Shown piece after piece: positions 4,769 through 23,070 of a DNA stretch of 64,000 nucleotides. The stretch spans positions 64,001 to 128,000 of the forward strand of contig JBIPSI010000016.1 in assembly GCA_044070495.1 (NCBI GenBank), in the 5' to 3' direction. The notes beneath the pieces were generated by a model. That model made no database searches and was not told the DNA's origin. It was given only the letters and a program-made list of their open reading frames with translations. This DNA comes from Spirulina sp. (GTDB lineage Bacteria > Cyanobacteriota > Cyanobacteriia > Phormidesmidales > Phormidesmidaceae). Made by a program: the position numbers and the translations under genes. Each line of letters opens with the position of its first letter. The first letter of the stretch is position 1.

Positions 4769-5908
4769 ATGCCCATCTACGACTGCATCATCGTCGGCGC
4801 TGGCCCCGCCGGATCCACCGCTGCCTACCACCTCAGCCGTGCTGGCCATCGGGTGCTGCTCGTAGAAGCCGCTACCCTGCCCCGCTACAAGCCCTGCGGC
4901 GGTGGCGTATCGCCCCAAATTGCCGAATGGTTTGACTTCGACTTCACCCCGGCCATTTCCATCAAGGTGCGGAGGGTGCGCTACACCCTCAACCTGCAAG
5001 ACCCGGTGGAGGCCGAACTACCGGAGGAACGGGCGCTGTGGATGGTGCGGCGCGACCAGTTTGATCACTTCATCGTGCAGCAGGCCCAACGCCAAGGGGC
5101 TACCCTGTGGGACGGCACCAAGGCCAAGGGCATTGAATCTACGGGCGACACCTGGCGCGTTCTCACCAGCCAAGGCACCGTGGAAGGCAAGTTTCTGATC
5201 GCCGCCGATGGATCGCGGGGGTCGATGGCCAAGTGGCTAGGGTTTACCCAGCGTCGCTATCGCCTCGCCGCCGCCATTGAAATTGAGCCACGTCTAGCAG
5301 TGCCCAGCGAACCCGTCATTCATTTTGATTTGGGCCTGCTCAAACAGGGCTATCTGTGGAACTTTCCCAAGGCCGATGGCTACTCCATTGGCGGGGGGGT
5401 GTTTCGGTCGGGCGACCAGCGCAAACAAGACCTACGCGCCCCCGTGGCCGACTATGCCGCCGAATTTGAGGTGGATGCCAAGGCCGTACAACCCTTTGGC
5501 CACCCAATTTTTATTTGGGATGGGCCGCAACCCCTACATACCCACCGTGCCCTGCTGGCCGGGGAAGCCGCCTGTGTGGTGGATCCCTTCACCGCCGAGG
5601 GCATTCGGCCCTCCATCTTCAGCGGGATGAAGGCCGCCGAGGCCGTTTCCCAAGCCCTAGCAGGGGATGACCAAGCCCTGCCCCACTACAGCGACACCAT
5701 GAACCGCGAATGGGGCGAAGAGATGCGCTGGGCCAAACGCCTCGCCCAGGTGGTCTACCAAGCGCCAGGGCTGGCCTATCGCCTGGCGGTAAAACGGCCC
5801 TCCAGCACCCTCACCATGGCCCAAATTTTTGCGGGAGAAGTACGCTACGCCGACGTGGTTCACCGTGCCGTTCAGCGCTTGCTTCGCCCGTCGTTTATGG
5901 GGGATTGA
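4769..5908 (+). CDS. Geranylgeranyl reductase family FAD-dependent oxidoreductase
   Basis: YDCIIVGAGPAG, KPCGGG, IAADG, GEAACVVDPFTAEGI. Confidence 0.88.
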   Translation: MPIYDCIIVGAGPAGSTAAYHLSRAGHRVLLVEAATLPRYKPCGGGVSPQIAEWFDFDFTPAISIKVRRVRYTLNLQDPVEAELPEERALWMVRRDQFDHFIVQQAQRQGATLWDGTKAKGIESTGDTWRVLTSQGTVEGKFLIAADGSRGSMAKWLGFTQRRYRLAAAIEIEPRLAVPSEPVIHFDLGLLKQGYLWNFPKADGYSIGGGVFRSGDQRKQDLRAPVADYAAEFEVDAKAVQPFGHPIFIWDGPQPLHTHRALLAGEAACVVDPFTAEGIRPSIFSGMKAAEAVSQALAGDDQALPHYSDTMNREWGEEMRWAKRLAQVVYQAPGLAYRLAVKRPSSTLTMAQIFAGEVRYADVVHRAVQRLLRPSFMGD

Positions 5909-6014
5909 ACCCGAAAATTACTTTTATATTCAAAATAAAACCCTGGTGTGCGGCAAGATTATCGTAGACCTAGACCCGCCCCCAGATTTAGCCCTAGACA
6001 TTGACCTCAATAGC
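5901..6014 (+). pseudogene. Remnant of a Uma2-family endonuclease gene
   Basis: GIEPENYFYIQNKTLVCGKIIVDLDPPPDLALDIDL aligns with GIEPDNCFYIQNEALVRGKLTLDLDQDPPPDLALEIDL of the intact gene (~7995-8113). Confidence 0.85.
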
Positions 6015-6054
6015 ACATTCATTTTAATAGAAGAACAGCAGTCATGCGATAGCC

Positions 6055-6087
6055 AGAACCCCGGCTTCTTCGAGAAGCCGGGGTTCT
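6055..6087. repeat. Palindromic dispersed repeat
   Basis: agaaccccggcttcttcgagaagccggggttct; related copies at ~8382-8413 and ~16400-16430. Confidence 0.75.
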
Positions 6088-6095
6088 GGTGCAAA

Positions 6096-6753
6096 GTATA
6101 TAACTATTCCGAAATCAGCCTCTCGGCAGGGTGATCAGAATTAGAGATCCCAGGGTTCTTAAAGAACCCTGGGATCTGAGTTTCCAACTATTCCGAAATT
6201 AGTCCTTCGATAGGGAGTGGCTCAGGAATCACGGCAGATTGTGTTGGTCACTCCGTTTCCAACTATTCCGAAATTAGCCATTCGGTAGGGTTGCTTGCCA
6301 GTTCGCTTGGTATTGCTAACGGTGCAATTGCCCAAGTTTCCAACTATTCCGAAATTAGCCCTTCGGTAGGGCAGATCAGGCCAAGGTGCGCAAGCACTAC
6401 GGTATCACGTTGTTTCCAACTATTCCGAAATTAGCCCTTCGGTAGGGCTACTTCGTCATGCACGTCGTCTTGCTTACCTGACCTCAGGAGTTTCCAACTA
6501 TTCCGAAATTAGCCCTTCGGTAGGGGCTGAACAACAAACCTTGACAGGAGAACAGCAAAACAAGTTTCCAACTATTCCGAAATTAGCCATTCGGTAGGGG
6601 GTAAGAGCAAGGTATTAACGACTCTGGCAACTCCGAGTAGTTCCCAACTATTCCGAAATTAGCCCTTCGGTAGGGACCTGATGCTAACGCGACCAATATC
6701 CTTGGTCTTTTTGCTTGGTTTCCAACTATTCCGAAATTAGCCCTTCGGTAGGG
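6096..6753 (-). CRISPR. CRISPR array 1: 8 repeats plus 1 degenerate
   Basis: 36-nt repeat GTTTCCAACTATTCCGAAATTAGCCCTTCGGTAGGG (+ strand) at 6180, 6255, 6336, 6412, 6490, 6564, 6640, 6718; degenerate copy at 6096. Minus-strand orientation is inferred from the 3' TTGGAAAC end and left-end degeneracy. Confidence 0.97.
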
Positions 6754-6895
6754 GTTGAGAATGATTGGTTTGCCAGATCCCAGGGTTCTTCGAGAACCCT
6801 GGGATCTTCTATCCGCAAAATCTCGCTTCATCACAAAGCTGTGCCAGTGCCAGCGCTCTCTTCTATCATACAAAGCGTTCTTGCCTATCATCACC

Positions 6896-7600
6896 ATGGC
6901 TTGGCTTATCTCCCTGCTGGCCCAAACCCCACCCGCCAGCCAAATCGACCTTCTCACCCAGCAGATCGAATTTCTGCAAGATGCCAACTCGCGGATGGCC
7001 GATAGCTTTGGCCAATTCGTCACCCTGGTCAACGTAGCGATTACCCTGGTGGTGGCGTTTATCGGTATCTTGGGGTTCAGTACGCGCCGAGAAATTAAGC
7101 AATCTCTGGATGGCTTAGTGCGGGCCGAGGTGAAAAAGCAGTTGGCCAACACCGTTAAAGCCCAGGTTGAAGACTTGGAGCGCATTATTTTGCGCGAAGC
7201 CGTGGTGGGCCAAACCCAGGTCGATTACCTGCTGCCCATCAGCCCCAGCCCCACCCCCACCGCCGAATATCAACTGCTGAAGGCGAGGGGGTTTCAAATG
7301 GCCTGGATGCCCTACGACCCCGAACGTCGCTATGGCAACAGCCATGTCCTCATCCTCGATTTGCTCACCCCCGACCTCGCCCCAGAACGCCGGGAGGCTC
7401 TCATCACCGACCTCGGCCAACGGCTGCAACACCTCACGAGGCCGCCCGTTCTGGTCATCTATGTGCGGGGGCAGAGCCAAGCTATCACCGATCTCCCCAA
7501 GGCGTTGTACTACATCCCCGTCAACAGCCGGGGCACCCTCCTAGGAGCCGTAACCGATGCGGCCCAGATTGCCTACGCCCTTCGCCAACCCGCCACCTAG
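6896..7600 (+). CDS. Membrane protein with C-terminal REC-like Rossmann domain; candidate Cam2/NARF-type type III effector
   Basis: Coiled segment, TM helix (FVTLVNVAITLVVAFIGILGF), coiled coil, then alternating beta/alpha elements (VDYLL, EYQLLKARGF, VLILDL, VLVIYVRG, YIPVNS). Lies between the two arrays. Start placed at ATG 6896. Confidence 0.65.
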   Translation: MAWLISLLAQTPPASQIDLLTQQIEFLQDANSRMADSFGQFVTLVNVAITLVVAFIGILGFSTRREIKQSLDGLVRAEVKKQLANTVKAQVEDLERIILREAVVGQTQVDYLLPISPSPTPTAEYQLLKARGFQMAWMPYDPERRYGNSHVLILDLLTPDLAPERREALITDLGQRLQHLTRPPVLVIYVRGQSQAITDLPKALYYIPVNSRGTLLGAVTDAAQIAYALRQPAT

Positions 7601-7709
7601 GGAACGGCGGTGGGGCGGGTGGCCAAGGAAGACCAGGACGGGAGGACTATCATAGGGGGTAGCACTGGCACCGCCCCCGACGGGCATTTCCAAGAGAGCG
7701 TATTTACCG

Positions 7710-8357
7710 ATGGTTACGATTCAACTTCGGCAATTAGAGGTACCCCCAGGGCAGCGTCTGGTGCTGCGCGATGTAAGCTGGGCCGAGTTTAATGCCATTT
7801 TGGCGGAATTGGGGGAGCAACGCAGCACCCGCATTGCCTACGACCACGGACTGTTAGAGATTATGGCCCCTTTACCCGAACACGAGTATTTTAAGGAAAC
7901 CATGGGTGATGCGGTTAAAGATATTAGTGAAGAACTAGATTTAGATTACGAAAGTTATGGGTCTACCACCTGGAGAAAGCAGGCGGCCCAGGCTGGCATA
8001 GAACCCGACAATTGCTTTTATATTCAAAACGAAGCCCTGGTACGCGGCAAACTTACCTTAGACCTAGACCAAGATCCACCCCCAGATTTAGCCCTAGAAA
8101 TTGATCTCACTAGCAAATCGATCCATCGGTTTTCGATCTATGCGCGGCTAGGCATACCCGAAATTTGGTGCTACGACCAAGGCCAACTGACGGTCTACCG
8201 TTTGCAATCTGGAGCCTATCAATCGGTGGCCCAAAGTCTGGTTTTTCCGATGCTTAAGGTACAGGAATTGCCCCACCTAATTGAAGCCCACCGCACCCAA
8301 GGACGGCTGGCCCTACGCCGAGCGGTGAGAGCCTGGGTGAGGGAGCAGATTCAATAA
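7710..8357 (+). CDS. Uma2 family (DUF820) endonuclease
   Basis: VSWAEF, LEIMAPLPEHE, IEPDNCFYIQN, PPPDLALEID, YARLGIPEIW. Confidence 0.9.
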   Translation: MVTIQLRQLEVPPGQRLVLRDVSWAEFNAILAELGEQRSTRIAYDHGLLEIMAPLPEHEYFKETMGDAVKDISEELDLDYESYGSTTWRKQAAQAGIEPDNCFYIQNEALVRGKLTLDLDQDPPPDLALEIDLTSKSIHRFSIYARLGIPEIWCYDQGQLTVYRLQSGAYQSVAQSLVFPMLKVQELPHLIEAHRTQGRLALRRAVRAWVREQIQ

Positions 8358-8431
8358 GAAAATAGCGATTATTCGACAGAAAGAACCCCGGTTTCCTGAA
8401 GAAACCGGGGCTTTAGTGCGAAGTATCCGAC

Positions 8432-8581
8432 TATAACGGTTCTCGATAGAGTGAGATACACCGTTGCTAGGTTCTAGATCCCCCCAGTACCTAGCTGTCT
8501 AAGTTTTACTCTATACCCCCCTTATCAAGGGGGGCAGGGGGGATCATCACAATGTACTTTACCCAAGTGACATCCGCTCTA
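8432..8581. mobile_element. MITE-like element inserted in the terminal CRISPR repeat
   Basis: Imperfect terminal inverted repeats tataacggttctcgatagagtgagataca / tgtactttacccaagtgacatccgctcta, internal ccccccttatcaagggggg hairpin. It splits a degenerate repeat: gtatccgacta | actattccgagaatagtccctcgttagg. Confidence 0.6.
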
Positions 8582-8653
8582 ACTATTCCGAGAATAGTCC
8601 CTCGTTAGGCGATTTCCAATTAAAGACACTGCATTTGACGGCGACACACTGTT

Positions 8654-10234
8654 GTTTCCAACTATCCCGAAATTAGCCCTCCGGTAGGGGGACCTTCTTC
8701 TTCAAGAAATGCCTGATGTTGATGGAGAAAACTCGTTTCCAACTATTCCGAAATTAGCCCTTCGGCAGGGTTCCTGGAGCCTAGTCAACAAGTGGAACAT
8801 GATTCGCACCTTTGCGTTTCCAACTATTCCGAAATTAGCCCTTCGGTAGGAAACATAGGAGAGTAAGTATGAAACCCTGTGGAATTAATGGTTTCCAACT
8901 ATTCCGAAATTAGCCCTTCGGTAGGGTAGGTTATTGGGCAGGTGAGATTACATTTTTCTTCGGTTTCCAACTATTCCGAAATTAGCCCTTCGGCAGGGTC
9001 TTTCGCGCCCTTGAAACAGGGGACGCAAGCGGCCTACTTGGTTTCCAACTATTCCGAAATTAGCCCTTCGGTAGGGCCGCTACCTAAGCCTATCAAGCGC
9101 AATGCTAAGCCTGTGTAGTTTCCAACTATTCCGAAATTAGCCCTTCGGTAGGGCACCCCGCACACGCCGACCAACAACAGACCAATAGGACTTTAGGTTT
9201 CCAACTATTCCGAAATTAGCCCTTCGGTAGGGCGTCCCAGCCCAGCCCAGATCAAGGCCAAGGGTGCTGTGACTGTTATGGGGTTTCCAACTATTCCGAA
9301 ATTAGCCCTTCGGTAGGGTAATGGTGAAATCCAAAACCGAAGCTGGGGGATTGGTTTCCAACTATTCCGAAATTAGCCCTTCGGCAGGGCTGGCAAAACT
9401 TCACCGAGGAGTTGATCGAGGAGGCTATAGAGTTTCCAACTATTCCGAAATTAGCCCTTCGGTAGGGGGTCGCACATTCAACAAGTGTTGAGCACTGCTG
9501 CAACTGAGTTTCCAACTATTCCGAAATTAGCTCTTCGGTAGGGCAACACTGACAATCGCTCTGCTGACTCTTCTACATGCTTTGGTCGGTTTCCAACTAC
9601 TCCGAAATTAGCCCTTCGGTAGGGCACAGAAAAAGAAAATATTGTAGACGGGTTCTATGAGCTAGGGTTTCCAACTATTCCGAAATTAGCCCTTCGGTAG
9701 GGAAGGCTCCTGAAAAAATTGGAGAAGGCCAGGTGGTCCAAGTGTTTCCAACTATTCCGAAATTAGCCCTTCGGTAGGGGGAGAATAGCACTGCCCAAGA
9801 GGTCATTAGCAGTCGTTTCCAACTATTCCGAAATTAGCCCTTCGGTAGGGAAACAGCTTCTCCGGAGCAGGTTCCAGCTCTAGTCTAGGTTTCCAACTAT
9901 TCCGAAATTAGCCCTTCGGTAGGGGCGTTCCAGATTTGGCACTTCGGTTTCACTAAAACAGGCTAGTTTCCAACTATTCCGAAATTAGCCCTTCGGTAGG
10001 GTTCCGTACAATTTGATTGACTTTGTTACGCTTCTGATTGTTTTGGGGTTTCCAACTATTCCGAAATTAGCCCTTCGGTAGGGTCGTGCCCCCTTTGGTT
10101 CTTACAATGCAGGCGTTCTTCTATAACTAAAGACCTCAGTAAGTACCTTAATCAAGTCGTGCCCCCTTTGGTTCTTACAATGCAGGCGTTCTAGATTCGT
10201 TTCCAACTATTCCGAAGTTAGCCCTTCGGTAGGA
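8654..10234 (-). CRISPR. CRISPR array 2: 20 repeats plus a split degenerate repeat at 8423-8610
   Basis: Same 36-nt repeat at 8654, 8735, 8816, 8891, 8963, 9041, 9118, 9197, 9283, 9354, 9432, 9508, 9589, 9667, 9744, 9815, 9889, 9966, 10048, 10199. Spacers are ~35-50 nt except one anomalous 115-nt unit. Confidence 0.98.
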
Positions 10235-10471
10235 AAGTTACGATCAATGGTGGAAAACCACAAAGGATCTCCATCACACTCTAGCCTACCCAAACCGAGA
10301 GGCTGTCCCTAGAATCTGCCAAACATTAAGCCCCCGTGATACGGCGTAGCAAACCGCAGTAAAACGTTATGGTTCGCAGGACAGAGCGAAGAAATCCTTA
10401 AATCTGAGCCGTAATCATTGCTCTTGCCCGTAGCCTTGGCCTTAACGCTCCGCCGTTCCGACACCTAGGCC

Positions 10472-12157
10472 ATGCCCTCGCCTGTCTATACCGCCATCAC
10501 CTTTGCCCCCGTGCAGGGCTTCATCGAAAAATCGCGCAAACTGCGAGATCTCTACGGGAGTTCGCTAATTTTGTCCTACCTGGCGGATCAACTTTGCGAT
10601 GCCGCGAGGGCCACCCTAGCCAGCCCTAATGCCCAATGGCCAGAGGATCCCGTCATTTCCCCAGCCCACATTAACGTGACCCAAGGCACCCCCAACCAAA
10701 TCCTGATTCGGGGAGAGTTTTCTGAGCCTGTCGCTGCCCAAGCCTTCAAAACCGCTTGGCGCGACCTGTGCAACACCTGTCGAGCGTGGATCGAAACCCA
10801 GGTTAGCACCCAACCCAACGGCCAACCCTGGGCCTACCACTGGGCGCGGCCTTGGCAAGAATGGGTCAACCATGCCTGGGAATTTTTCCATGCCACTGGC
10901 CCCAGCCCAGAACAGGCCAAACAAACCTTGATGGCCAAAAAACAAGCCCGTGCCTGGACGGGGGTGAACTGGGTGGGCGAAAGTTCTACCCTGTCGGGGC
11001 TAGATTCGCGGGCGTGGCCCTTACTGGGGCGGCACTCTCCCCACCAACGCCCCAAGGCCGAAGAAGAGACCGAAGTCACCACCTTTTACCAACAGCTCAG
11101 CGAGGCCATCGGCGCAACCGGAGAAGCCATCATCACCCCCAGGGAACAGCTCAGCATTCCCGAACTGGTGAAACGGCTGGTGACGGTGGAGGCCGTGGTG
11201 GGCCACAACCCAGAACTGGGTACCCTAATGAGCTTTAAAGACCTCAACCGCTGGCACGATCCAGAGGTAGACGACCTGCCCGACGAAGCCCAGCGCCGTC
11301 CCGAAGACTCCCAGCCGGGACGCTGGACAGGCTGGTTTCAGGGCGATGGGGATCGTGTCAGCGACCATTTACGGGGACAATCCCCCGATGCCCTCCACGA
11401 CTTTAGCCATCAACTGCGGCGGTGGGGTCGCCAGTTGCCCCGTCATCTGCCCAAAGCCACCACCCAGCGCCGCACCCTAGATCGCGATGGGCGGATCATC
11501 TATGCAGGCGGCGACGACTTCCTGGGCGTCCTCTATCGCAATGAACCCGACCCACCCTTGGCCCCCGCCGAGGCCGTGGCTTGGCTGTCGCAGTTTCGTT
11601 CCCACATTTGGAGTCTGCACCAGCAGCCGATTACCGTCAGCGTGGGCTTTGTGTGGGCGGCCCCCAACGTGCCCCAGCGAGACGTGTTGCAGCACTGCCG
11701 CGAAGCCCAGGACTCGGCCAAGCAGCACGGACGAGATCGCATTGCCTTTCGCCTTCTGTTTAACGGTGGCAACTGGCTAGAGTGGGTCTGTCCTTGGTGG
11801 TTGCTAGAGGCGGGGTTGCTGGAGTCTTACCGAGATCGCAACGGGGTGCAGGGAACCACCAACGCCCCCAACTGGACACATCTCTATAACGACATCGCCA
11901 CCCTAGAGGCCCGCCACGGCTTTGATGCCCAGGGTGATGTGGCCCTAGCCCTGGTGACGATCTACTTTGGAGAAGACCTCTGTACCCTCATCCGTCAGCA
12001 CCGTTGGGATACCCCAGACCGCACCGGAATTTTGGGCCACTCCGCCCCAGAGGCCATCGCGATCACCGCCTGGGTGATCGCCCTCGCCAAGGTCGGCTTC
12101 CATCTGCATCGCCTTGGGGTTAACCGGGACTACATCGCTACCCCCATAGCCGCCTAG
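10472..12157 (+). CDS. cas10: Cas10/Cmr2, short form without HD domain, GGDD intact
   Basis: ITFAPVQGFIEKSRKLRDLYGSSLILSYL at the N-terminus, WFQGDGD, IIYAGGDDFLG; 561 aa. Confidence 0.93.
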   Translation: MPSPVYTAITFAPVQGFIEKSRKLRDLYGSSLILSYLADQLCDAARATLASPNAQWPEDPVISPAHINVTQGTPNQILIRGEFSEPVAAQAFKTAWRDLCNTCRAWIETQVSTQPNGQPWAYHWARPWQEWVNHAWEFFHATGPSPEQAKQTLMAKKQARAWTGVNWVGESSTLSGLDSRAWPLLGRHSPHQRPKAEEETEVTTFYQQLSEAIGATGEAIITPREQLSIPELVKRLVTVEAVVGHNPELGTLMSFKDLNRWHDPEVDDLPDEAQRRPEDSQPGRWTGWFQGDGDRVSDHLRGQSPDALHDFSHQLRRWGRQLPRHLPKATTQRRTLDRDGRIIYAGGDDFLGVLYRNEPDPPLAPAEAVAWLSQFRSHIWSLHQQPITVSVGFVWAAPNVPQRDVLQHCREAQDSAKQHGRDRIAFRLLFNGGNWLEWVCPWWLLEAGLLESYRDRNGVQGTTNAPNWTHLYNDIATLEARHGFDAQGDVALALVTIYFGEDLCTLIRQHRWDTPDRTGILGHSAPEAIAITAWVIALAKVGFHLHRLGVNRDYIATPIAA

Positions 12158-12167
12158 GAATCACTGA

Positions 12168-13232
<1,065 letters not shown>

Positions 13233-13317
13233 TCCCAATCCCCCGCACAGGCACACCGCTGGTCACCAAAATCCCAGCCCTCCCCCCCAGCCCCTTCACA
13301 CTTTCACACTTTCACCC

Positions 13318-14127
13318 ATGTACCACAAAGCCTACGGCATCATCGAAACCCTAGCCCCGCTCCATATAGGGGCCAGCGCCGGAGAAGAAACCGGAAACCT
13401 CAACCTGATTTTTCGCGACCAGTTCACCCAAACGGGCATTATTCCCGGTAGCTCGATTCGGGGGCGGTTCCGGGCCGATATGCGGCAGATCGACGGAGCT
13501 TCTGCCCAGCAGTGGTATGGCCATGAGGCCGTGGCGGGGGCAGAGGATGGCGGCACCACCGAAGCCCTGGTGAAGTTTGAGTATGCATCGTTGGTGTGGC
13601 TGCCAGTGTTCTGTCCAGGCCAGCCGATTTTATGGGTAACGTGCCCTTGGCTGCTGAAGCGCTACCAACGCATTGCGGAGATTGCCGATCCGATTCCCGA
13701 CCCCTACACAGCCTCCCCCGGTCTTCAGGGCCGCCAGGTGGGCACCGGAGGCAAAGTGTTGTTTTTCAACCTGGGCTTTCTGACGCTGGAACATGAGGTG
13801 GATTTGTCCCCCTGGATTCCGGCGGGGGTAGATCTGCGGGCCGATAGCTTAGTGGTGGTAGACAACCGCGACATCAGCATGATCCACGACATGGCCCTCT
13901 ATCGCCAAAGCCGGGTGCGCCTAGAGGATGACCAAAAGAAAGTGGCATCGGGCGCTTTCTTTAATGTGGAAGCCCTACCGGAGGGCTGCATTTTGGTGTT
14001 TCCGGTTGCCCTCAAAGCGCCAGACTGGCAACCCTTTGGTTCGGCCCAGACCCAGGAACTTTACTTTGGCGGGCTAGAATCCATCGGCTTTGGCCGTTGT
14101 TACGTCACCCTAGCGGGAGGGAATTAG
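13318..14127 (+). CDS. cmr4: Cmr4 (Cas7 group RAMP)
   Basis: TLAPLHIGA, IPGSSIRGRFR, EALPEG, FGGLESIGFG glycine-rich loop. Confidence 0.9.
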   Translation: MYHKAYGIIETLAPLHIGASAGEETGNLNLIFRDQFTQTGIIPGSSIRGRFRADMRQIDGASAQQWYGHEAVAGAEDGGTTEALVKFEYASLVWLPVFCPGQPILWVTCPWLLKRYQRIAEIADPIPDPYTASPGLQGRQVGTGGKVLFFNLGFLTLEHEVDLSPWIPAGVDLRADSLVVVDNRDISMIHDMALYRQSRVRLEDDQKKVASGAFFNVEALPEGCILVFPVALKAPDWQPFGSAQTQELYFGGLESIGFGRCYVTLAGGN

Positions 14128-14129
14128 TC

Positions 14130-14525
14130 ATGGCTTGGGAATCCTACGGACTCGATCAACTGGCTCAACAACTGGTGTTAGATGCCAAGGCCAGGGAACC
14201 GCAATCCCTGAATCAGGCCTACAAAATGCGGATGGCCACCGCCTACGGCCTAGAGCGTTTTTGGGGCGAACATCTGCGGCTGCAACGGCGAGAACTGAAT
14301 GCCTCTCTGTTTTGGCAAGAAACCTGGGCCGCCTTGGTAACGGTGATGGCCCGCGCTGGGGTCAACCTGCCGAATCAGCGGGTGAACTCCGACGATGTGG
14401 CCTCCATTCGCGCTATTTCCGAAGCCCTGTGGCAGTTGCCCCTCAGCGACCAGCGGGTGGCCCTAGCGGTGTTGACCCAGCTTTGCGACAGCCTCGTTTG
14501 GTGGACGCAGCGCTACAAGGGGTAA
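14130..14525 (+). CDS. cmr5: Cmr5-like small subunit (Cas11)
   Basis: 131-aa helical protein directly after cmr4, with C-terminal WWTQRYK. Confidence 0.7.
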   Translation: MAWESYGLDQLAQQLVLDAKAREPQSLNQAYKMRMATAYGLERFWGEHLRLQRRELNASLFWQETWAALVTVMARAGVNLPNQRVNSDDVASIRAISEALWQLPLSDQRVALAVLTQLCDSLVWWTQRYKG

Positions 14526-14649
14526 GTCGGGTTCACACACCCGTAACGCACTTGATTTATAAGGCTTTGATGCCTGACGCTAGCCCATCCTCCAGACTTC
14601 CAACCCTCCCATTGCGCTGATCTGGCTTAGGTTTCAGCTTTTTTACCCA

Positions 14650-16386
14650 ATGCCCTCGACCATGCCAACTTCACCTAACATCCCAAACATAACCACTCGC
14701 GTACCCATGATGTTTCGGGCACAGGTGCCAGGTCGCTGCCAACTTCAGCGCATTGATCCACAGCGTAGTAAGGACGGCATCGATCAAGATGTAGAGCGTT
14801 GGGTGGATGAGTGGATTGATAAAACGAGCGACGATCCGCCCCAATCTAGCCGCACCGAAAACAGCCGCGTGTACGACATCACCTGGCGGTTTGTCACCAA
14901 TGGCGGCCAAGACGATGGCATCATTCGTCCGGTGATTGGGGCCTATGGCTGGCCTGTATATCCGGGCAGCAGTATGAAAGGAGCCTTTCGCCAAGCCTGT
15001 ACCATTACCCAAGCCGACCGTTACTGTGGACGGGCCGTTGGCCAAGATTTCCAGCCTGGTATTTTGCGATTCCACGGGGGCTATCCCACCAGTACCGACT
15101 GGACGGATGGCCTGGTGGATATCATCCACCCTCAACAGGATCGCCAGGTTAAGCAGGAACAAACGACCAGCGCCTTTGCCCAAATTTCCCTCTATCAGCC
15201 CCAGTTGCGGTTTGCCATCTCCAGCACCGAACCCCTAGAGGCCACGGAATGGGAGATCATTTGGCAAATTTGGGAGCGGGCGTCGCACAACGGCCTGGGC
15301 TGCCGCGTTAGTGCGGGCTATGGCCAGGTTCTCTTGCCTGCGGATCGCCCAAAAAATGGGGATTCTGGTGAAGTCCTATTCCAAGCCCATCTAAAGGGGC
15401 AGGGGCAAGCGCCTAAGTTGATTGATCAGGCTGGGGAGTTTCGGCCCAATGTATTCCGGGCGGCGGTGCGGGGCCATGCCTTGCGATTATTTGGTGGCCT
15501 AACTTCGGCAGAGCAGGCGGAGGCGTTGGTCAACGGTCTCTTTGGCAGTGTGCGAGGCAGTGGCGATGTGGGACTGCTGGCCCTCCAGTTTCAAACTCGC
15601 CATTTAACCTTGGACAGCTACGGCACCGGGAAATGGGAGCAGCCCACCTATGCCGTAGATGGTGATCTATCTTGGCGACTTACCCGATCCTTACCAGATG
15701 CCGACCAGCGGACAGCGTTAGCAAATTTGGTGCGGGCGCTGATGCATTTTTCCATGGTGTTTGGCGGCTTTGGCAAATCCTGGCGACGGGCCGATCATCG
15801 CCTCTTTTACCCCGACTATGCCGAGCAACCCAACAAGCCCCTGATTGGTTGCCACTGGCAATGGGGGGCCGAGTCCCTTCAGCAGAACTATCAAGTTCGC
15901 AAGTCAGAGCAAATTCCCTCCTTCCTAAATGCCGTACGGGGCGTGGCGCGGCAATGGATTCGGCTCCAGGGGGCCGAGTCTAACCAGCGGGCCACCCACT
16001 GGCGCGAAGCTTGGCACCCGCAGACGGTTCAAGTGTGGGGGCGCGTAGCCACCCACCAAGACGACAGCCTCGCCATCGAATGGTTGCACCGTCCCTATCA
16101 AGAGGCGATTCGGGCGGCTGGCATCCCCGAAGGATCGATCTACAAAACCTCGGTCACGGGAGAACTGGGGCGCATTGGTCGTCTATGGCATCGGATGTAT
16201 CCTGTGGTGCGGCTGGCAAAACGGAAGGATGACCCCCAGGGCAAACCCAGGGCCATTCTGCCGCCAAATCCCCAGTATTTAGAACTTCTGACCCTTTTTC
16301 CGGATGATTCCACGGAATACCAGCAATTTCTGCAATTTCTTCAGCAGCAGCAAACGGCGTTTACCCCGCTTTGGCCAGCACCCTAG
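14650..16386 (+). CDS. Cmr6-Cmr1 fused Cas7 RAMP protein
   Basis: Two RAMP units: PVYPGSSMKGAFR...GLGCRVSAGYG (Cmr6-like) and FRPNVFRAAVRGHALR...GGFGKSWRR (Cmr1-like). Confidence 0.8.
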   Translation: MPSTMPTSPNIPNITTRVPMMFRAQVPGRCQLQRIDPQRSKDGIDQDVERWVDEWIDKTSDDPPQSSRTENSRVYDITWRFVTNGGQDDGIIRPVIGAYGWPVYPGSSMKGAFRQACTITQADRYCGRAVGQDFQPGILRFHGGYPTSTDWTDGLVDIIHPQQDRQVKQEQTTSAFAQISLYQPQLRFAISSTEPLEATEWEIIWQIWERASHNGLGCRVSAGYGQVLLPADRPKNGDSGEVLFQAHLKGQGQAPKLIDQAGEFRPNVFRAAVRGHALRLFGGLTSAEQAEALVNGLFGSVRGSGDVGLLALQFQTRHLTLDSYGTGKWEQPTYAVDGDLSWRLTRSLPDADQRTALANLVRALMHFSMVFGGFGKSWRRADHRLFYPDYAEQPNKPLIGCHWQWGAESLQQNYQVRKSEQIPSFLNAVRGVARQWIRLQGAESNQRATHWREAWHPQTVQVWGRVATHQDDSLAIEWLHRPYQEAIRAAGIPEGSIYKTSVTGELGRIGRLWHRMYPVVRLAKRKDDPQGKPRAILPPNPQYLELLTLFPDDSTEYQQFLQFLQQQQTAFTPLWPAP

Positions 16387-17567: not shown

Positions 17568-17794
17568 CGGAAACCATGAAAATCAAGGGTTTTGCTGTAA
17601 GGTACAAGCGCGAAGCAATTCACCAAAACCCATCCATACCATCATAAACCCGCTATGGGCGTAGGGTGGCCAAGGGGGTGGTGCATTGCGGCCAAGGGGT
17701 GGTGCCGCAGGGGCGAAGGATGACGGTGCCGCGAATACCCCATCGCTACCTAGCCAAAGGATATGATGAAGGGGCCGCAACCCAAGATCGGACT

Positions 17795-18064
17795 ATGCCT
17801 GTCGTCTCGATGTTCTATGGGGTAATCGTACTGATGTATTTCTTTGATAATAGGAAGCATCATCAGCCCCATATTCATGTGAAATACCAGGGCGAAGAAG
17901 CCGTGATCTCAATTCCAGATGGATTGGTCTTGGAGGGTAAGCTACGTAGCTCAAAGCTGAAGCTAGTGTTGGCTTGGGTTGAGATTCATCAAGACGAGTT
18001 GATGGCAAACTGGGAATTAGCGATTGCGGGTGAGCAGATTTTCAAAATTGAGCCGTTACGATAG
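17795..18064 (+). CDS. DUF4160 domain protein (putative toxin)
   Basis: MPVVSMFYGVIVLMYF, HHQPHIHVKY, WVEIHQDELMANW. Confidence 0.85.
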   Translation: MPVVSMFYGVIVLMYFFDNRKHHQPHIHVKYQGEEAVISIPDGLVLEGKLRSSKLKLVLAWVEIHQDELMANWELAIAGEQIFKIEPLR

Positions 18065-19697: not shown

Positions 19698-21971
19698 TTA
19701 CAAGTCTCTGTGCGAGAGAAGAGATGCCCACCCCCCCCAAACCCCCCCAGGAAATTCTCCTGCGGGGGAAAAAGAAGGGTTGGCTTTTAGGTCGCTGTAG
19801 TTCAGGTAGCTTCCGTCCTTGCGCCAGCCGACGCGATCTGCAAAGTCTTCCCAAGTTTCTTCATGATACTTGCCATCGAGCGGGTTGCCGCATTCCACAT
19901 AAAGTTGCTTTTGTACGCTGAAGCCAAACTTGCCTTGGCTGTACTTCACCCATAGCCCATCGAGGTGCAGCAAATCAGGGCAAGGAAAGTTGAGTAGCTC
20001 ATTCGAGTAAAGAATTCGTCCAAACTCTTTGCCATAGGTTTGCAGCATCAAGCGCCAGGTTTCCTCATCGGATTCTCTCCATTGGCCCTGTTGCAGGTAT
20101 TCCTCTAGCTGGCCAAAACGGCGGATTTTGATATCGGCCACTAGGTCATCATCTAAACGGCGGCGGTTAACGCGCAGGCAATCGTAGGCTAGGGATGCGG
20201 CGGCGTGGCTGCGGCGATAGGCGGCACGGAGCAAGTTGGTGGGGTTGACCTGGGCAACGTAGAGCAGAACGGTGCCCTTCCAGTATTCGTTGTCGAAGTT
20301 TTGCAAAAGCAGGTCTTCGTAGCTGGGGTCTCTTTGTACCTGATCTTTGATTTGGGTGGCGGCTAGGTATTCTTGAAAGCTGCGGTGGGCAAATTCGTAG
20401 CCGTCGTCTTTTTTCACCAGCAGTTCGCTCACCCGTTCAATGGTTTGGAGAAAGGGGCGAGGGGCAACGGTTTCGTCCTGGTCAGCCAAGCCCTGTTGAA
20501 TCAAGTCGAGCAGGGCATCGACGGGAATCACCTGCTGTTCGGCCTTCACCATGGCCAGAGCGACGTTTTGTAACACGGCCTGACTCGCCTCGGCGGGCAG
20601 GGGCAAATCCACCTTTTTGGCCATGGGGCGATCTCCCAGTTGCAGTTTGCAAATGCCGGAATATAACTCGGCCTGACGCTGGGGCAGTTGTTCGTTGGGG
20701 TAGCTGCGGTGAAACATGGCGATCATATTCAGCATCAGCGGATTTTCGGCCATGCTTTCCAGTTCTGGGCGATTGTCGATTTGGCTCAGCAGGTTTTCGG
20801 CCCGTTGCTTGGCAGCTTCTTGCACATCGGGTGTCAGGCGGTTGCCCCGATGAAAGCGCTCTTGGCACAGATACCACTGCTCCACAAAGCGGCGGCGTTG
20901 GTCTTCGTCAAAGGGTTGCACGGCTAGGGGCGTTTGCACCCTTTCGGCGGAGTAATCGGTGTCGTAGGCGGTGGGGCGCGAGGTGAGAATAAACACCGTG
21001 TTTGGGTACGCCTGCATTTGGTGGGTAATCCACTGGCTAACGGCGGGGCGCTGGGCTTCGGCAACTTCGTCAAAGCCGTCGAGCATCACCAGCAGGCGTC
21101 CGGTGTGCAGCAGGTTTTCGGCCCAGGAGGTCGGGATATCTAGAGCCTTGCCCTGGGCTAGGGCTTTGGCATGATGCTGGGTGATCAGTTCTGGCAGGGC
21201 GGGGGCATTGGGCTGGGCAATCGTGTCTCGCCAGGTGCGGAGGTACAACAGCACGGGGATAAGGCGAGGGGCTTTGTAGCGACAGCGCACCAAGCGAGGG
21301 CGAGTGGCATAGAGATAGGTGAGGTGGCGCAGCAGGGTGGTTTTGCCAAAGCCGCCGTAGGCTTTGATCACCAAATGGCGAAACTGGGGCGTTTTGGCAC
21401 TGAGGGCGAGGATATCCCAAATTTGCTGGGTGGGCCGCTCCTGCATCTGCTGAAGGATGTCTTCGGGCTTGTCGCCAAAGCCGGGTAAGGTGGGCAGGGC
21501 TTGGCCTTCAAAATTACGCAAAAACTCACTGCTGAGCTTCAGCGGTACATAGACTTCATCCAGGTCAGGATTCAAAATGCCAGAGGGCAGGGGTACTTCG
21601 TTATGGCTCACATAGGCACGACAAGCGCTGGCCTGAGCTTTGAGGTACTGGCCTTCCGTTCCCGAAAAGCGCCAACGAATTGCCCGATCCAGCCGATCAA
21701 GGAAAGCGACCAAGGCATCGGCATCCTGGGTGCCACGCTCCCCGGCAATTTCCCCCAACCGAGCCGTAAAGTTGCCCGTATACCTGGCCCACACCGCCGT
21801 TACCACCATGGCCGGAAACGTGAGCATGGCCATCGCCCACTCTTGCTGAAGTAAAAAGTGTGCAAAGGCCCAGCCACTCCCCCCCAACGGGCTCCACTGG
21901 ATCAAGGCATCCACAGCCTTTTGTACGTAGCGACGTTCAGGGCTGGAATTCGGGGCAGGTGGCTGAGTCAT
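19698..21971 (-). CDS. NACHT (STAND) NTPase with N-terminal TM helices and C-terminal GUN4 domain
   Basis: VYVPLKL, Walker A AYGGFGKT, Walker B LVMLDGFDE, ILTSRP, NPLML, FAHRSFQEYL; GUN4 motifs WRESDEET, FPCPDLLHLDGLWVKYSQGKFGFSVQK, VGWR. Confidence 0.88.
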   Translation of the reverse strand: MTQPPAPNSSPERRYVQKAVDALIQWSPLGGSGWAFAHFLLQQEWAMAMLTFPAMVVTAVWARYTGNFTARLGEIAGERGTQDADALVAFLDRLDRAIRWRFSGTEGQYLKAQASACRAYVSHNEVPLPSGILNPDLDEVYVPLKLSSEFLRNFEGQALPTLPGFGDKPEDILQQMQERPTQQIWDILALSAKTPQFRHLVIKAYGGFGKTTLLRHLTYLYATRPRLVRCRYKAPRLIPVLLYLRTWRDTIAQPNAPALPELITQHHAKALAQGKALDIPTSWAENLLHTGRLLVMLDGFDEVAEAQRPAVSQWITHQMQAYPNTVFILTSRPTAYDTDYSAERVQTPLAVQPFDEDQRRRFVEQWYLCQERFHRGNRLTPDVQEAAKQRAENLLSQIDNRPELESMAENPLMLNMIAMFHRSYPNEQLPQRQAELYSGICKLQLGDRPMAKKVDLPLPAEASQAVLQNVALAMVKAEQQVIPVDALLDLIQQGLADQDETVAPRPFLQTIERVSELLVKKDDGYEFAHRSFQEYLAATQIKDQVQRDPSYEDLLLQNFDNEYWKGTVLLYVAQVNPTNLLRAAYRRSHAAASLAYDCLRVNRRRLDDDLVADIKIRRFGQLEEYLQQGQWRESDEETWRLMLQTYGKEFGRILYSNELLNFPCPDLLHLDGLWVKYSQGKFGFSVQKQLYVECGNPLDGKYHEETWEDFADRVGWRKDGSYLNYSDLKANPSFSPAGEFPGGVWGGWASLLSHRDL

Positions 21972-22922: not shown

Positions 22923-23070
22923 CCTGATCCCCCCCGTTGAATGGGAAGAGGGCGGTGCCTTGGGAAACCCTGAGACAAGCCATGGCTTAGGGTAGACCCC
23001 TTCATCCGAAGAATGCGGTAATATCAGCGGAACAGATTGACCCGATTGACCTGCCGGAAGGAGATTCCCT

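Follow-up and report, generated by a model that had tools for sequence, protein, structure and literature searches.

How a unit of 115 nt came to lie between two repeats of an array whose other spacers do not exceed 50 nt is the question raised by the CRISPR locus described here. The locus belongs to Spirulina sp. and is located in a stretch of 64,000 nt from assembly GCA_044070495.1 (contig JBIPSI010000016.1, positions 64,001 to 128,000 of the forward strand), which is called the window in the following, and to which all coordinates refer unless a contig is named. The array concerned, array B (8654..10234, minus strand), consists of 36-nt repeats, 20 in all, with 18 spacers of normal length (35-50 nt) and the 115-nt unit, which is composite: a spacer-like piece of 36 nt has been inserted within a spacer, with duplication of 37 bp of target sequence. 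Judged from sequence, this unit is very probably the product of an off-target event by a CRISPR integrase (Cas1-Cas2). A smaller array A (6180..6753, minus strand) has eight repeats of the same 36-nt family and seven spacers of 38-45 nt. The family has the plus-strand sequence GTTTCCAACTATTCCGAAATTAGCCCTTCGGTAGGG (GTTTCC...GGTAGGG), and the other spacers of the two arrays (n = 25) are each 35-50 nt in length.

An insertion within a spacer

Read along the plus strand, the unit follows a canonical repeat, R2 (10048..10083, minus strand), the last 6 nt of which are GGTAGG on the plus strand, and the final G of which is also base 1 of a duplicated segment, D. The first copy of D (10083..10119) comprises 37 bp, being the final G of R2 and nt 1-36 of spacer S1, and is followed by the spacer-like piece X (10120..10155), by the second copy of D (10156..10192), and by six nt (10193-10198) that complete S1; these make up the 115 nt between R2 and R1, the first base of D being shared with R2. 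The complete, 42-nt S1 (10157..10198, minus strand) adjoins the leader-proximal repeat R1 (10199..10234, minus strand), which has two mismatches to the consensus, G10217 and A10234. The two copies of D, with sequence GTCGTGCCCCCTTTGGTTCTTACAATGCAGGCGTTCT, match at 37/37 positions, and their edges are sharp, as the 12-nt flanks of the copies agree at just 3 and 2 positions. No repeat lies between them, and R2 contributes its last base alone to the duplication. The elements described in the original prediction, made from the sequence alone, were confirmed at every coordinate: a 37-nt sequence that occurs twice around a unique 36-nt piece, a duplication of about one repeat in length (37 bp, against the 36 nt of array B's own repeat) which begins at a repeat/spacer junction, and a terminal repeat with two mismatches. 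For annotation, the event accounts for an over-long 'spacer' of a sort that array finders are liable to mis-report.

The state before insertion was found in relatives. Contigs from four of the four wastewater-metagenome runs examined (two studies) carried repeat-S1-repeat without X (contigs of 94-95 nt; records 6, 13, 22, 23, and 26), and in two of these contigs (records 22 and 26, from runs X3 and X6) the order was R2, S1 nt 1-36, GGATTC, and then directly a repeat. S1 is uninterrupted in these relatives and differs at a single position, with G at 10193 where the window has A. Compared to this empty site, the window genome carries 73 bp of extra DNA, made up of X and the second 37-bp copy. 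Since an intact S1 stands between repeats in the relatives, the composite unit arose by insertion, with duplication of 37 bp at the target site. It had been considered that the whole 115 nt might come from one contiguous source with the same direct repeat, and the existence of the empty-site allele in relatives shows that this was not so. Contig depth was 0 across 10132-10152 in all four runs, an uncovered part among contigs being no proof on its own. The metagenome relative is about 95% identical to the window genome, with 13 of 277 positions different in its leader contig. Eleven of these 13 differences are listed, and the remaining two must lie within approximately 31 nt of one end of a piece; they may be 10217 and 10234, in which case the R1 of the relative would be canonical and the changes in R1 would be specific to the window genome.

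The comparison with sister arrays that had been proposed at the outset was productive in the metagenome relatives, which supplied the empty site, and unproductive in the 40 other genomes, where neither S1 nor X was found. The closest relative at the genome level, G005, has an array that shares two spacers with the window arrays, S1 and X not being among them. When the arrays of G005, G018, and G004 were screened by unit length, none was longer than 60 nt apart from two kb-scale insertions. Several other irregularities were observed in these arrays. That of G005 has 45 repeats and includes an abnormally short spacer of 23 nt (L029 3037-3059), and around 0.9 kb of extra DNA lies between its last repeat and the conserved part of the leader (L029, G005:C257, 5580-6510). 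The array of G018 (L030, G018:C2), of the III-B-type repeat family and otherwise canonical, includes 14 consecutive repeats with the variant end GGTAGTG (9092-10106) and is broken by insertions of 1.2 kb and 5.5 kb.

The inserted piece X has the length of a spacer, as 36 nt is inside the spacer-length range of all the arrays, and a G+C content of 11/36 (counted by hand from the printed sequence). Elsewhere in the genome, X and S1 have chance matches alone, of 15 nt or less. A search of the insert and spacer against phages and plasmids had been suggested, and the 115-nt unit was compared by blastn with 50,697 records from phages and 72,556 from plasmids; it gave no match, and the source was not found. 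Exact scans of viral contigs (with X, S1 nt 1-36, and a 24-nt core of X), metagenome contigs (S1 nt 1-36 and the X core), and genome contigs (X and the X core) returned zero hits, and scans of this type overlook diverged protospacers. A near-match in G015, antisense within a WD40-repeat gene (30 nt, 27 identities, and a 2-nt gap; E = 0.015 for one genome of the 41 searched), was set aside as chance.

A number of more familiar origins for the unit were considered and rejected. X is not a decayed repeat, as 19.5% of shuffled sequences reach its global alignment score to the repeat, and duplication of a spacer-repeat unit by misalignment is not consistent with two copies that have no repeat between them, around a piece that is not repeat-like. 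Spacer acquisition, either canonical or ectopic, was dismissed because no repeat is duplicated and no new spacer-repeat unit is present. Transposable elements have terminal inverted repeats and/or a transposase, and duplicate about 2-15 bp of their target, and an insert of 36 nt without other copies, in a 37-bp duplication, is not of this kind.

A probable integrase and a second scar

Across the 74 contigs of the genome (G000), cas1 and cas2 occur just twice each, all four genes being open and none lying on the contig of array B. A type I-D locus on contig C1 (Cas3', Cas10d, Csc2, Csc1, Cas6, Cas4, and Cas1d) ends with one cas1/cas2 pair and is followed by an array of 55 repeats. The other pair is part of a type III-D locus on contig C20 (Csx10, Csx19, Csx7-like RAMPs, and Crn3/Csx3), which is followed by an array of 25 repeats. 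The repeats of both arrays are 37 nt long, a length equal to the 37-bp stagger of the window event, and those of arrays A and B are 36 nt. As the locus of array B is without Cas1-Cas2, the integrase would have acted in trans, and the 37-bp stagger, together with the cut site GGTAGG/GTC (the slash marks the cut), points to the III-D module, so that III-D Cas1-Cas2 acting in trans on a III-B-type array is the likely agent. Spacers of 36 nt, the length of X, make up 8 of 43 in the III-D arrays (own and G005), 19 of 54 in the I-D array, where they are the mode, and 1 of 25 in arrays A and B. In the same order, 39-nt spacers make up 5 of 43 and 1 of 54 in the III-D and I-D sets. Two further repeat clusters were noticed in the genome: a fourth, small array on contig C5 (49046-49292), with four copies of a 37-nt repeat ending GTTGAAAG and spacers of 34-35 nt, lies near neither of the cas1 genes, and at C20:12819-12930 there are two degenerate copies of the III-D repeat, reversed and beside a palindrome, which are probably a remnant array.

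Each of the genome's three systems has a leader/first-repeat junction, and with these the pre-insertion site was compared in either orientation (six pairings). On the plus strand the site reads CCCTTCGGTAGG/GTCGTGCCCCCT, and the genome's own III-D junction reads CCAAGGCCGAGG/GTCAGATACCCT; these match at 12 of 24 positions, six of them contiguous over the cut (AGG/GTC), as against 3-8 of 24 for the other five pairings. The GGTAGG of the site is the end of the III-B-type repeat. It had been proposed that the integrase directed its ruler into the spacer, and this is supported, in that the end of the III-B repeat and the start of S1 on the plus strand together mimic a III-D junction that faces the spacer. 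The distal end of the duplication bears no resemblance (3 of 24 positions), which is expected if the second cut is measured rather than read.

A search with the III-D Cas1 in a sample of 301 genomes of the class recovered 11 further loci, at 58-71% identity, and the junctions of 11 loci were surveyed: the genome's own, that of G005, and those of nine loci with the first repeat in the fetched stretch. G155 was omitted, with no array in the fetched stretch, as was G250, the sole array of which lies at the opposite end of the locus and in the reverse orientation. AGG/GT was present at 8 of the 11 junctions, GTAGG/GT at six, and GGTAGG/GT at five, and the repeats were 37 nt long in ten cases, the eleventh being either 37 or 38. 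The window site, GGTAGG/GTC, is the consensus of the III-D clade as read from these junctions. A III-D-type array (L046, G238) has seven leader-proximal repeats that end in GGAAAT, while the next five end in GGAAAC, a pattern that fits the copying of new repeats from a variant first repeat.

A second scar of the same form was detected when the genome (5.3 Mb) was scanned for direct repeats that were exact, 24 nt or longer, sharp-edged, not of low complexity, and of period 30-400. Ten cases were found, four of them with a gap of 30-50 nt, and of these four, two were 26-nt repeats with a recurrent, GGTGGGCAGTGCCCACC-type palindrome. Only the window event and one on contig C27 consisted of 37-nt repeats around a unique, spacer-sized gap; direct repeats on C15, C53, C29, C9, C1, and C4 were discounted as extended or tandem duplications, or as palindrome-bearing. 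The C27 scar (22932-23044; L034 1433-1545) is an exact 37-bp duplication with a unique 39-nt insert, lies outside any array, and is in effect a two-repeat proto-array. It is situated between convergent open reading frames (ORFs), inside the loop of a recurrent palindrome, and its empty site is provided by G067, where the same palindrome holds the segment in single copy and without the insert. The left junction, CCCAGG/GTTCTA, again has AGG/GT, and the probability of AGGGT by chance, with both orientations allowed, is 0.003 from genome pentamer frequencies; AGGGTT is more than twice as frequent in the genome as AGGGTC. Elsewhere in the genome this insert, like X and S1, has chance matches alone, of 15 nt or less, and its best match among the phages and plasmids was at chance level (E = 0.6). 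The palindrome GATCCCAGGGTTCT-loop-AGAACCCTGGGATC also occurs on both sides of array A (6148-6178 and 6778-6808) and at C20:12790-12820, ahead of a degenerate III-D-like mini-array, in addition to C27:22917-23060, where it hosts the scar.

Taken together, these data are best explained by the following sequence of events. The ancestral order would have been leader, R1, S1 (42 nt), R2. III-D Cas1-Cas2 carrying a 36-nt prespacer would have taken GGTAGG/GT on the plus strand for a leader/repeat junction, with the GGTAGG of R2 as pseudo-leader end, and the first attack would have been on this strand, between 10082 and 10083. The second, on the minus strand and 37 bp further on, would have fallen inside S1, six bases before R1, at a position set by the ruler and independent of sequence, and gap repair would then have doubled the 37 bp on either side of X. 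The structure, the empty site, the intact integrase genes, the 37-nt repeats, the junction match, and the second scar are observed, and from them we infer which attack came first, which enzyme was at work, and what follows for the RNA. Mis-integration into a spacer, which was the core of the original prediction, is supported by the empty site, the 37-bp stagger, the spacer-sized insert, and the junction match. Production of the S1 guide RNA should continue, since a complete copy of S1 still follows R1 on the minus strand. X is preceded by spacer sequence, without a repeat-derived handle, and is probably a silent passenger which never heads a CRISPR RNA (crRNA). With X silent and the S1 guide retained, the scar would be nearly neutral, which would account for its persistence.

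Other explanations differ in the enzyme they invoke, or dispense with an enzyme altogether. The I-D module (Cas4-Cas1d-Cas2, on C1) has intact integrase genes and would suit the dimensions of the window event, with its 37-nt repeat and spacers that are 35-37 nt long in 45 of 54 cases. However, its junction (GGCC/CTCGCC) matches the window site at 8 or 4 of 24 positions, depending on orientation, with no run over the cut, an I-D-like junction is present at neither scar, and the 39-nt length of the C27 insert is found in just one of the I-D spacers, so that off-target integration by this module is unlikely. A lower probability still attaches to the usual integrase of the III-B array, either lost or unrecognised, with an imprecise ruler that measured 37 rather than 36. 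In its favour, the event lies in a III-B-type array, at its leader end, where the two changes in R1, one of them at the leader junction, might have disabled the proper site, but the genome has no third cas1, an insert of 36 nt is atypical for arrays A and B, and the C27 event, with its 37-bp stagger and AGG/GT outside any array, would be left unexplained.

Slippage or a template switch with filler DNA, or duplication of a spacer-repeat unit followed by decay of the middle repeat, would draw on a process that is common in arrays, where misalignment duplicates spacers or blocks of them (PMC8047081, available text). Such misalignment doubles whole spacer-repeat units, whereas no repeat lies between the copies of D, and heavy decay of a middle repeat is ruled out by copies that are still identical and by an X that does not resemble a repeat. 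The filler is absent elsewhere in the genome, and coincidence would have to account for the length of 37 bp, for an insert the size of a spacer, and for the return of the junction motif on C27, which makes this origin very improbable. Equally improbable is an artefact of assembly or gap filling, in which a 37-base overlap was set on both sides of an unrelated sequence. The assembly is a draft of 74 contigs, and the equal overlap length of the two events could hint at a k-mer effect, but D-X-D is 110 nt, within the span of ordinary reads, and no further sharp-edged duplications of this type were found in the 5.3 Mb. Unique sequences of 36 nt and 39 nt would not be created by an artefact, nor would it put both events at AGG/GT (p = 0.003 for the second) or yield the length of the resident CRISPR repeats.

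Against mis-integration by the III-D module there are also observations to be set. None of the 24 spacers in its own array is 36 nt long, and the III-B-type arrays have spacers with a greater average length than those of III-D arrays. Its own leader ends in CCGAGG (junction CCGAGG/GTC) and not in GGTAGG, and the survey included exceptions, with G334 ambiguous by one G, G121 having TAG/GTC, and G231 having AGT/ATT. The motif was first seen on the window event and is post hoc to that extent, later tests being limited to C27 and the clade survey. III-D Cas1-Cas2 would also have to be active, and to act in trans on array B. The empty site is known from short contigs of a relative and not from a sister strain, and no sequencing run contained more than 0.20 of the sampled words of this stretch. 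Lastly, no protospacer for X or for the C27 insert was recovered in the searches given above.

Orientation of array B and the III-B-like locus

In the two arrays of this genome that lie beside cas1-cas2 genes, the repeats end in GAAAC on the strand leading away from the leader. By this rule array B is read on the minus strand, with a leader at 10235-10471. In agreement with this reading, degenerate copies of the repeat (at 8574 and 8654) are found at the opposite end of the array, the first of these (8574-8609) at the trailer end, and the minus strand has a terminator-like hairpin beyond this trailer end, which gives weak support. A promoter scan of the leader on the minus strand gave no sigma-70-like match, and an Rfam scan of 7000-11500 gave no family. 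The placement of the composite unit at the leader end, as originally proposed, is upheld by the GAAAC rule and by the degenerate copies at the far end. In G005 the leader is 98% identical from 10322 onward, and in the metagenome contigs it is approximately 95% identical.

The inferred leader (10235..10471, minus strand) is at the same time the divergent upstream region of cmr2, the first of a block of III-B-like effector genes on the plus strand (10472..16386). These encode Cas10/Cmr2 (10472-12157), with Cmr2_N and Cas10 palm2 domains above the Pfam cut-offs, Cmr3 (12174-13232; Cas_Cmr3 above the Pfam cut-off), and the RAMP protein Cmr4 (13318-14127; RAMP above the Pfam cut-off), and two further ORFs (14135-14620 and 14650-16386) complete the block. 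With Cas10/Cmr2, Cmr3, and Cmr4 beside the array, the locus is type III-B-like on sequence grounds, and because the NCBIfam matches for Cmr2 and Cmr4 score under their curated cut-offs, it represents a divergent variant. No cas1, cas2, or cas6 was recognised at this locus.

Arrays A and B are about 1.9 kb apart (region 5900-8660), and between them are an ORF (6755-7600) and a gene for a Uma2-family endonuclease (7710-8357). Before array A there is a fragment like the 3' part of the Uma2 gene (approximately 5930-6015), a hairpin, and a degenerate repeat, and the array region has the appearance of a segmental duplication or of a split. Beyond the cmr genes are an ORF for a DhiT-like toxin (17666-18064, under the curated cut-off) and a weak match to NACHT/EruA-like antiphage proteins (19698-21971), which suggests a defence island.

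Relation to known events and wider meaning

Off-target integration by Cas1-Cas2, with formation of 'neo-CRISPR' arrays, was reportedly described by Nivala, Shipman and Church in 2018 (Nat Microbiol), the events being said to come mostly from E. coli with over-expressed type I-E Cas1-Cas2. The window event resembles these in its spacer-sized insert, in a duplication of about one repeat length, and in a site like the native leader-repeat junction, and the C27 event resembles them as a two-repeat proto-array. The window event differs in being natural, in having an observed empty site, and in lying inside a spacer of another CRISPR type's array, with the mimic furnished by the array's own repeat. 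The 2018 work is cited for off-target integration in the accessible text of PMC6698737 and PMC7054753, and natural evidence, as far as the available text of a preprint goes (bioRxiv 10.1101/148544), was circumstantial and came from two other species. The type of event is, then, already known from experiments, and the window provides a new natural example of it. What is new are the empty sites in relatives, the site within a spacer of an array of a different CRISPR type, with the mimic supplied by the repeat of that array, the second scar in the same genome, and, for integrases of the III-D type, a motif that may serve as their anchor. In open-access text, searched by keyword, no account of such a scar was found, nor one of the integration rules of cyanobacterial III-D systems, a question at which the literature searches had not been aimed.

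A division of labour between a read site and a measured one is described for the type II-A system of Streptococcus thermophilus (Kim et al. 2019, PMC6895254, available text), where site 1 is chosen by the sequence of the leader-repeat junction and site 2 by a ruler, and where a misplaced second site leads to 'partial duplication of the spacer'. Off-target sites outside CRISPR also look like leader-repeat junctions, according to the same source and the accessible part of PMC6698737. In the II-A case, as far as that text describes it, the partial spacer duplication arose in engineered repeat mutants and included the repeat, whereas in the window only the last base of the repeat is included, and the window system is type III-D/III-B and from a cyanobacterium. 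Ectopic acquisition within arrays, as summarised in the available text of PMC8047081 (Achigar et al. 2017, 2021; McGinn and Marraffini 2016), doubles an internal repeat. It is similar to the window event in that a spacer enters at a place other than the leader/first-repeat junction, perhaps aided by changes in the leader junction, but it gives rise to a normal spacer-repeat unit, whereas the window event doubled spacer sequence and produced no new repeat.

Among cyanobacteria, Synechocystis PCC 6803 offers a parallel in its CRISPR3 system (III-Bv), which is processed by RNase E and yields 13/14-nt handles (PMC12464536, available text). Going by that text, it shares with the window genome the combination of three systems (I-D, III-D, and III-B-like), a locus without cas6, cas1, or cas2, and a 36-nt repeat with a 5' stem-loop and a 13-nt single-stranded tail; this is a resemblance only, and the fold of the array B repeat, with its stem and 13-nt tail, is no better than that of shuffled sequences (z = -0.45). 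In Listeria seeligeri, a locus without Cas1-Cas2 relies on the integrase of another system (10.1101/2024.10.25.620265, available text). The window would be comparable in having a Cas1-less locus served by a foreign integrase, but the cross-talk in Listeria, in the part of the preprint available, consists of proper acquisition and in the window of a mis-placed product.

A more tentative suggestion, to which we give somewhat less than even weight, is that the III-B-type repeat could carry, as GGTAGG/G at its end on the plus strand, its own copy of the motif through which the III-D integrase clade anchors to the leader. Spacer units starting with T, which complete AGG/GT, number 7 of 26 in arrays A and B, and those starting with TC number 2 of 26, S1 included. 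If the suggestion is correct, every repeat/spacer junction of the Cas1-less array would be a latent, inverted landing site for III-D Cas1-Cas2, and the same promiscuity would seed two-repeat proto-arrays at AGG/GT in intergenic palindromes, as on C27. The genome would then be a natural record both of cross-talk between CRISPR types and of the birth of 'neo-CRISPR' arrays, and GGTAGG/GT combined with a rigid 37-bp ruler would be the first sequence rule for III-D-type adaptation.

Most documented cases of off-target integration by Cas1-Cas2 come from over-expression or in vitro work, and natural scars are few and circumstantial. Here a single genome holds two scars, and relatives supply the empty site of each, so that the enzyme's stagger can be read from sequence, and was 37 bp both times, as can the motif to which it is keyed, AGG/GT, the conserved III-D leader end; the second cut appears to ignore sequence. 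This provides a concrete, testable rule for the III-D adaptation module of cyanobacteria, and a hint as to how III-B arrays that lack Cas1 may interact with the integrase of a neighbouring system.

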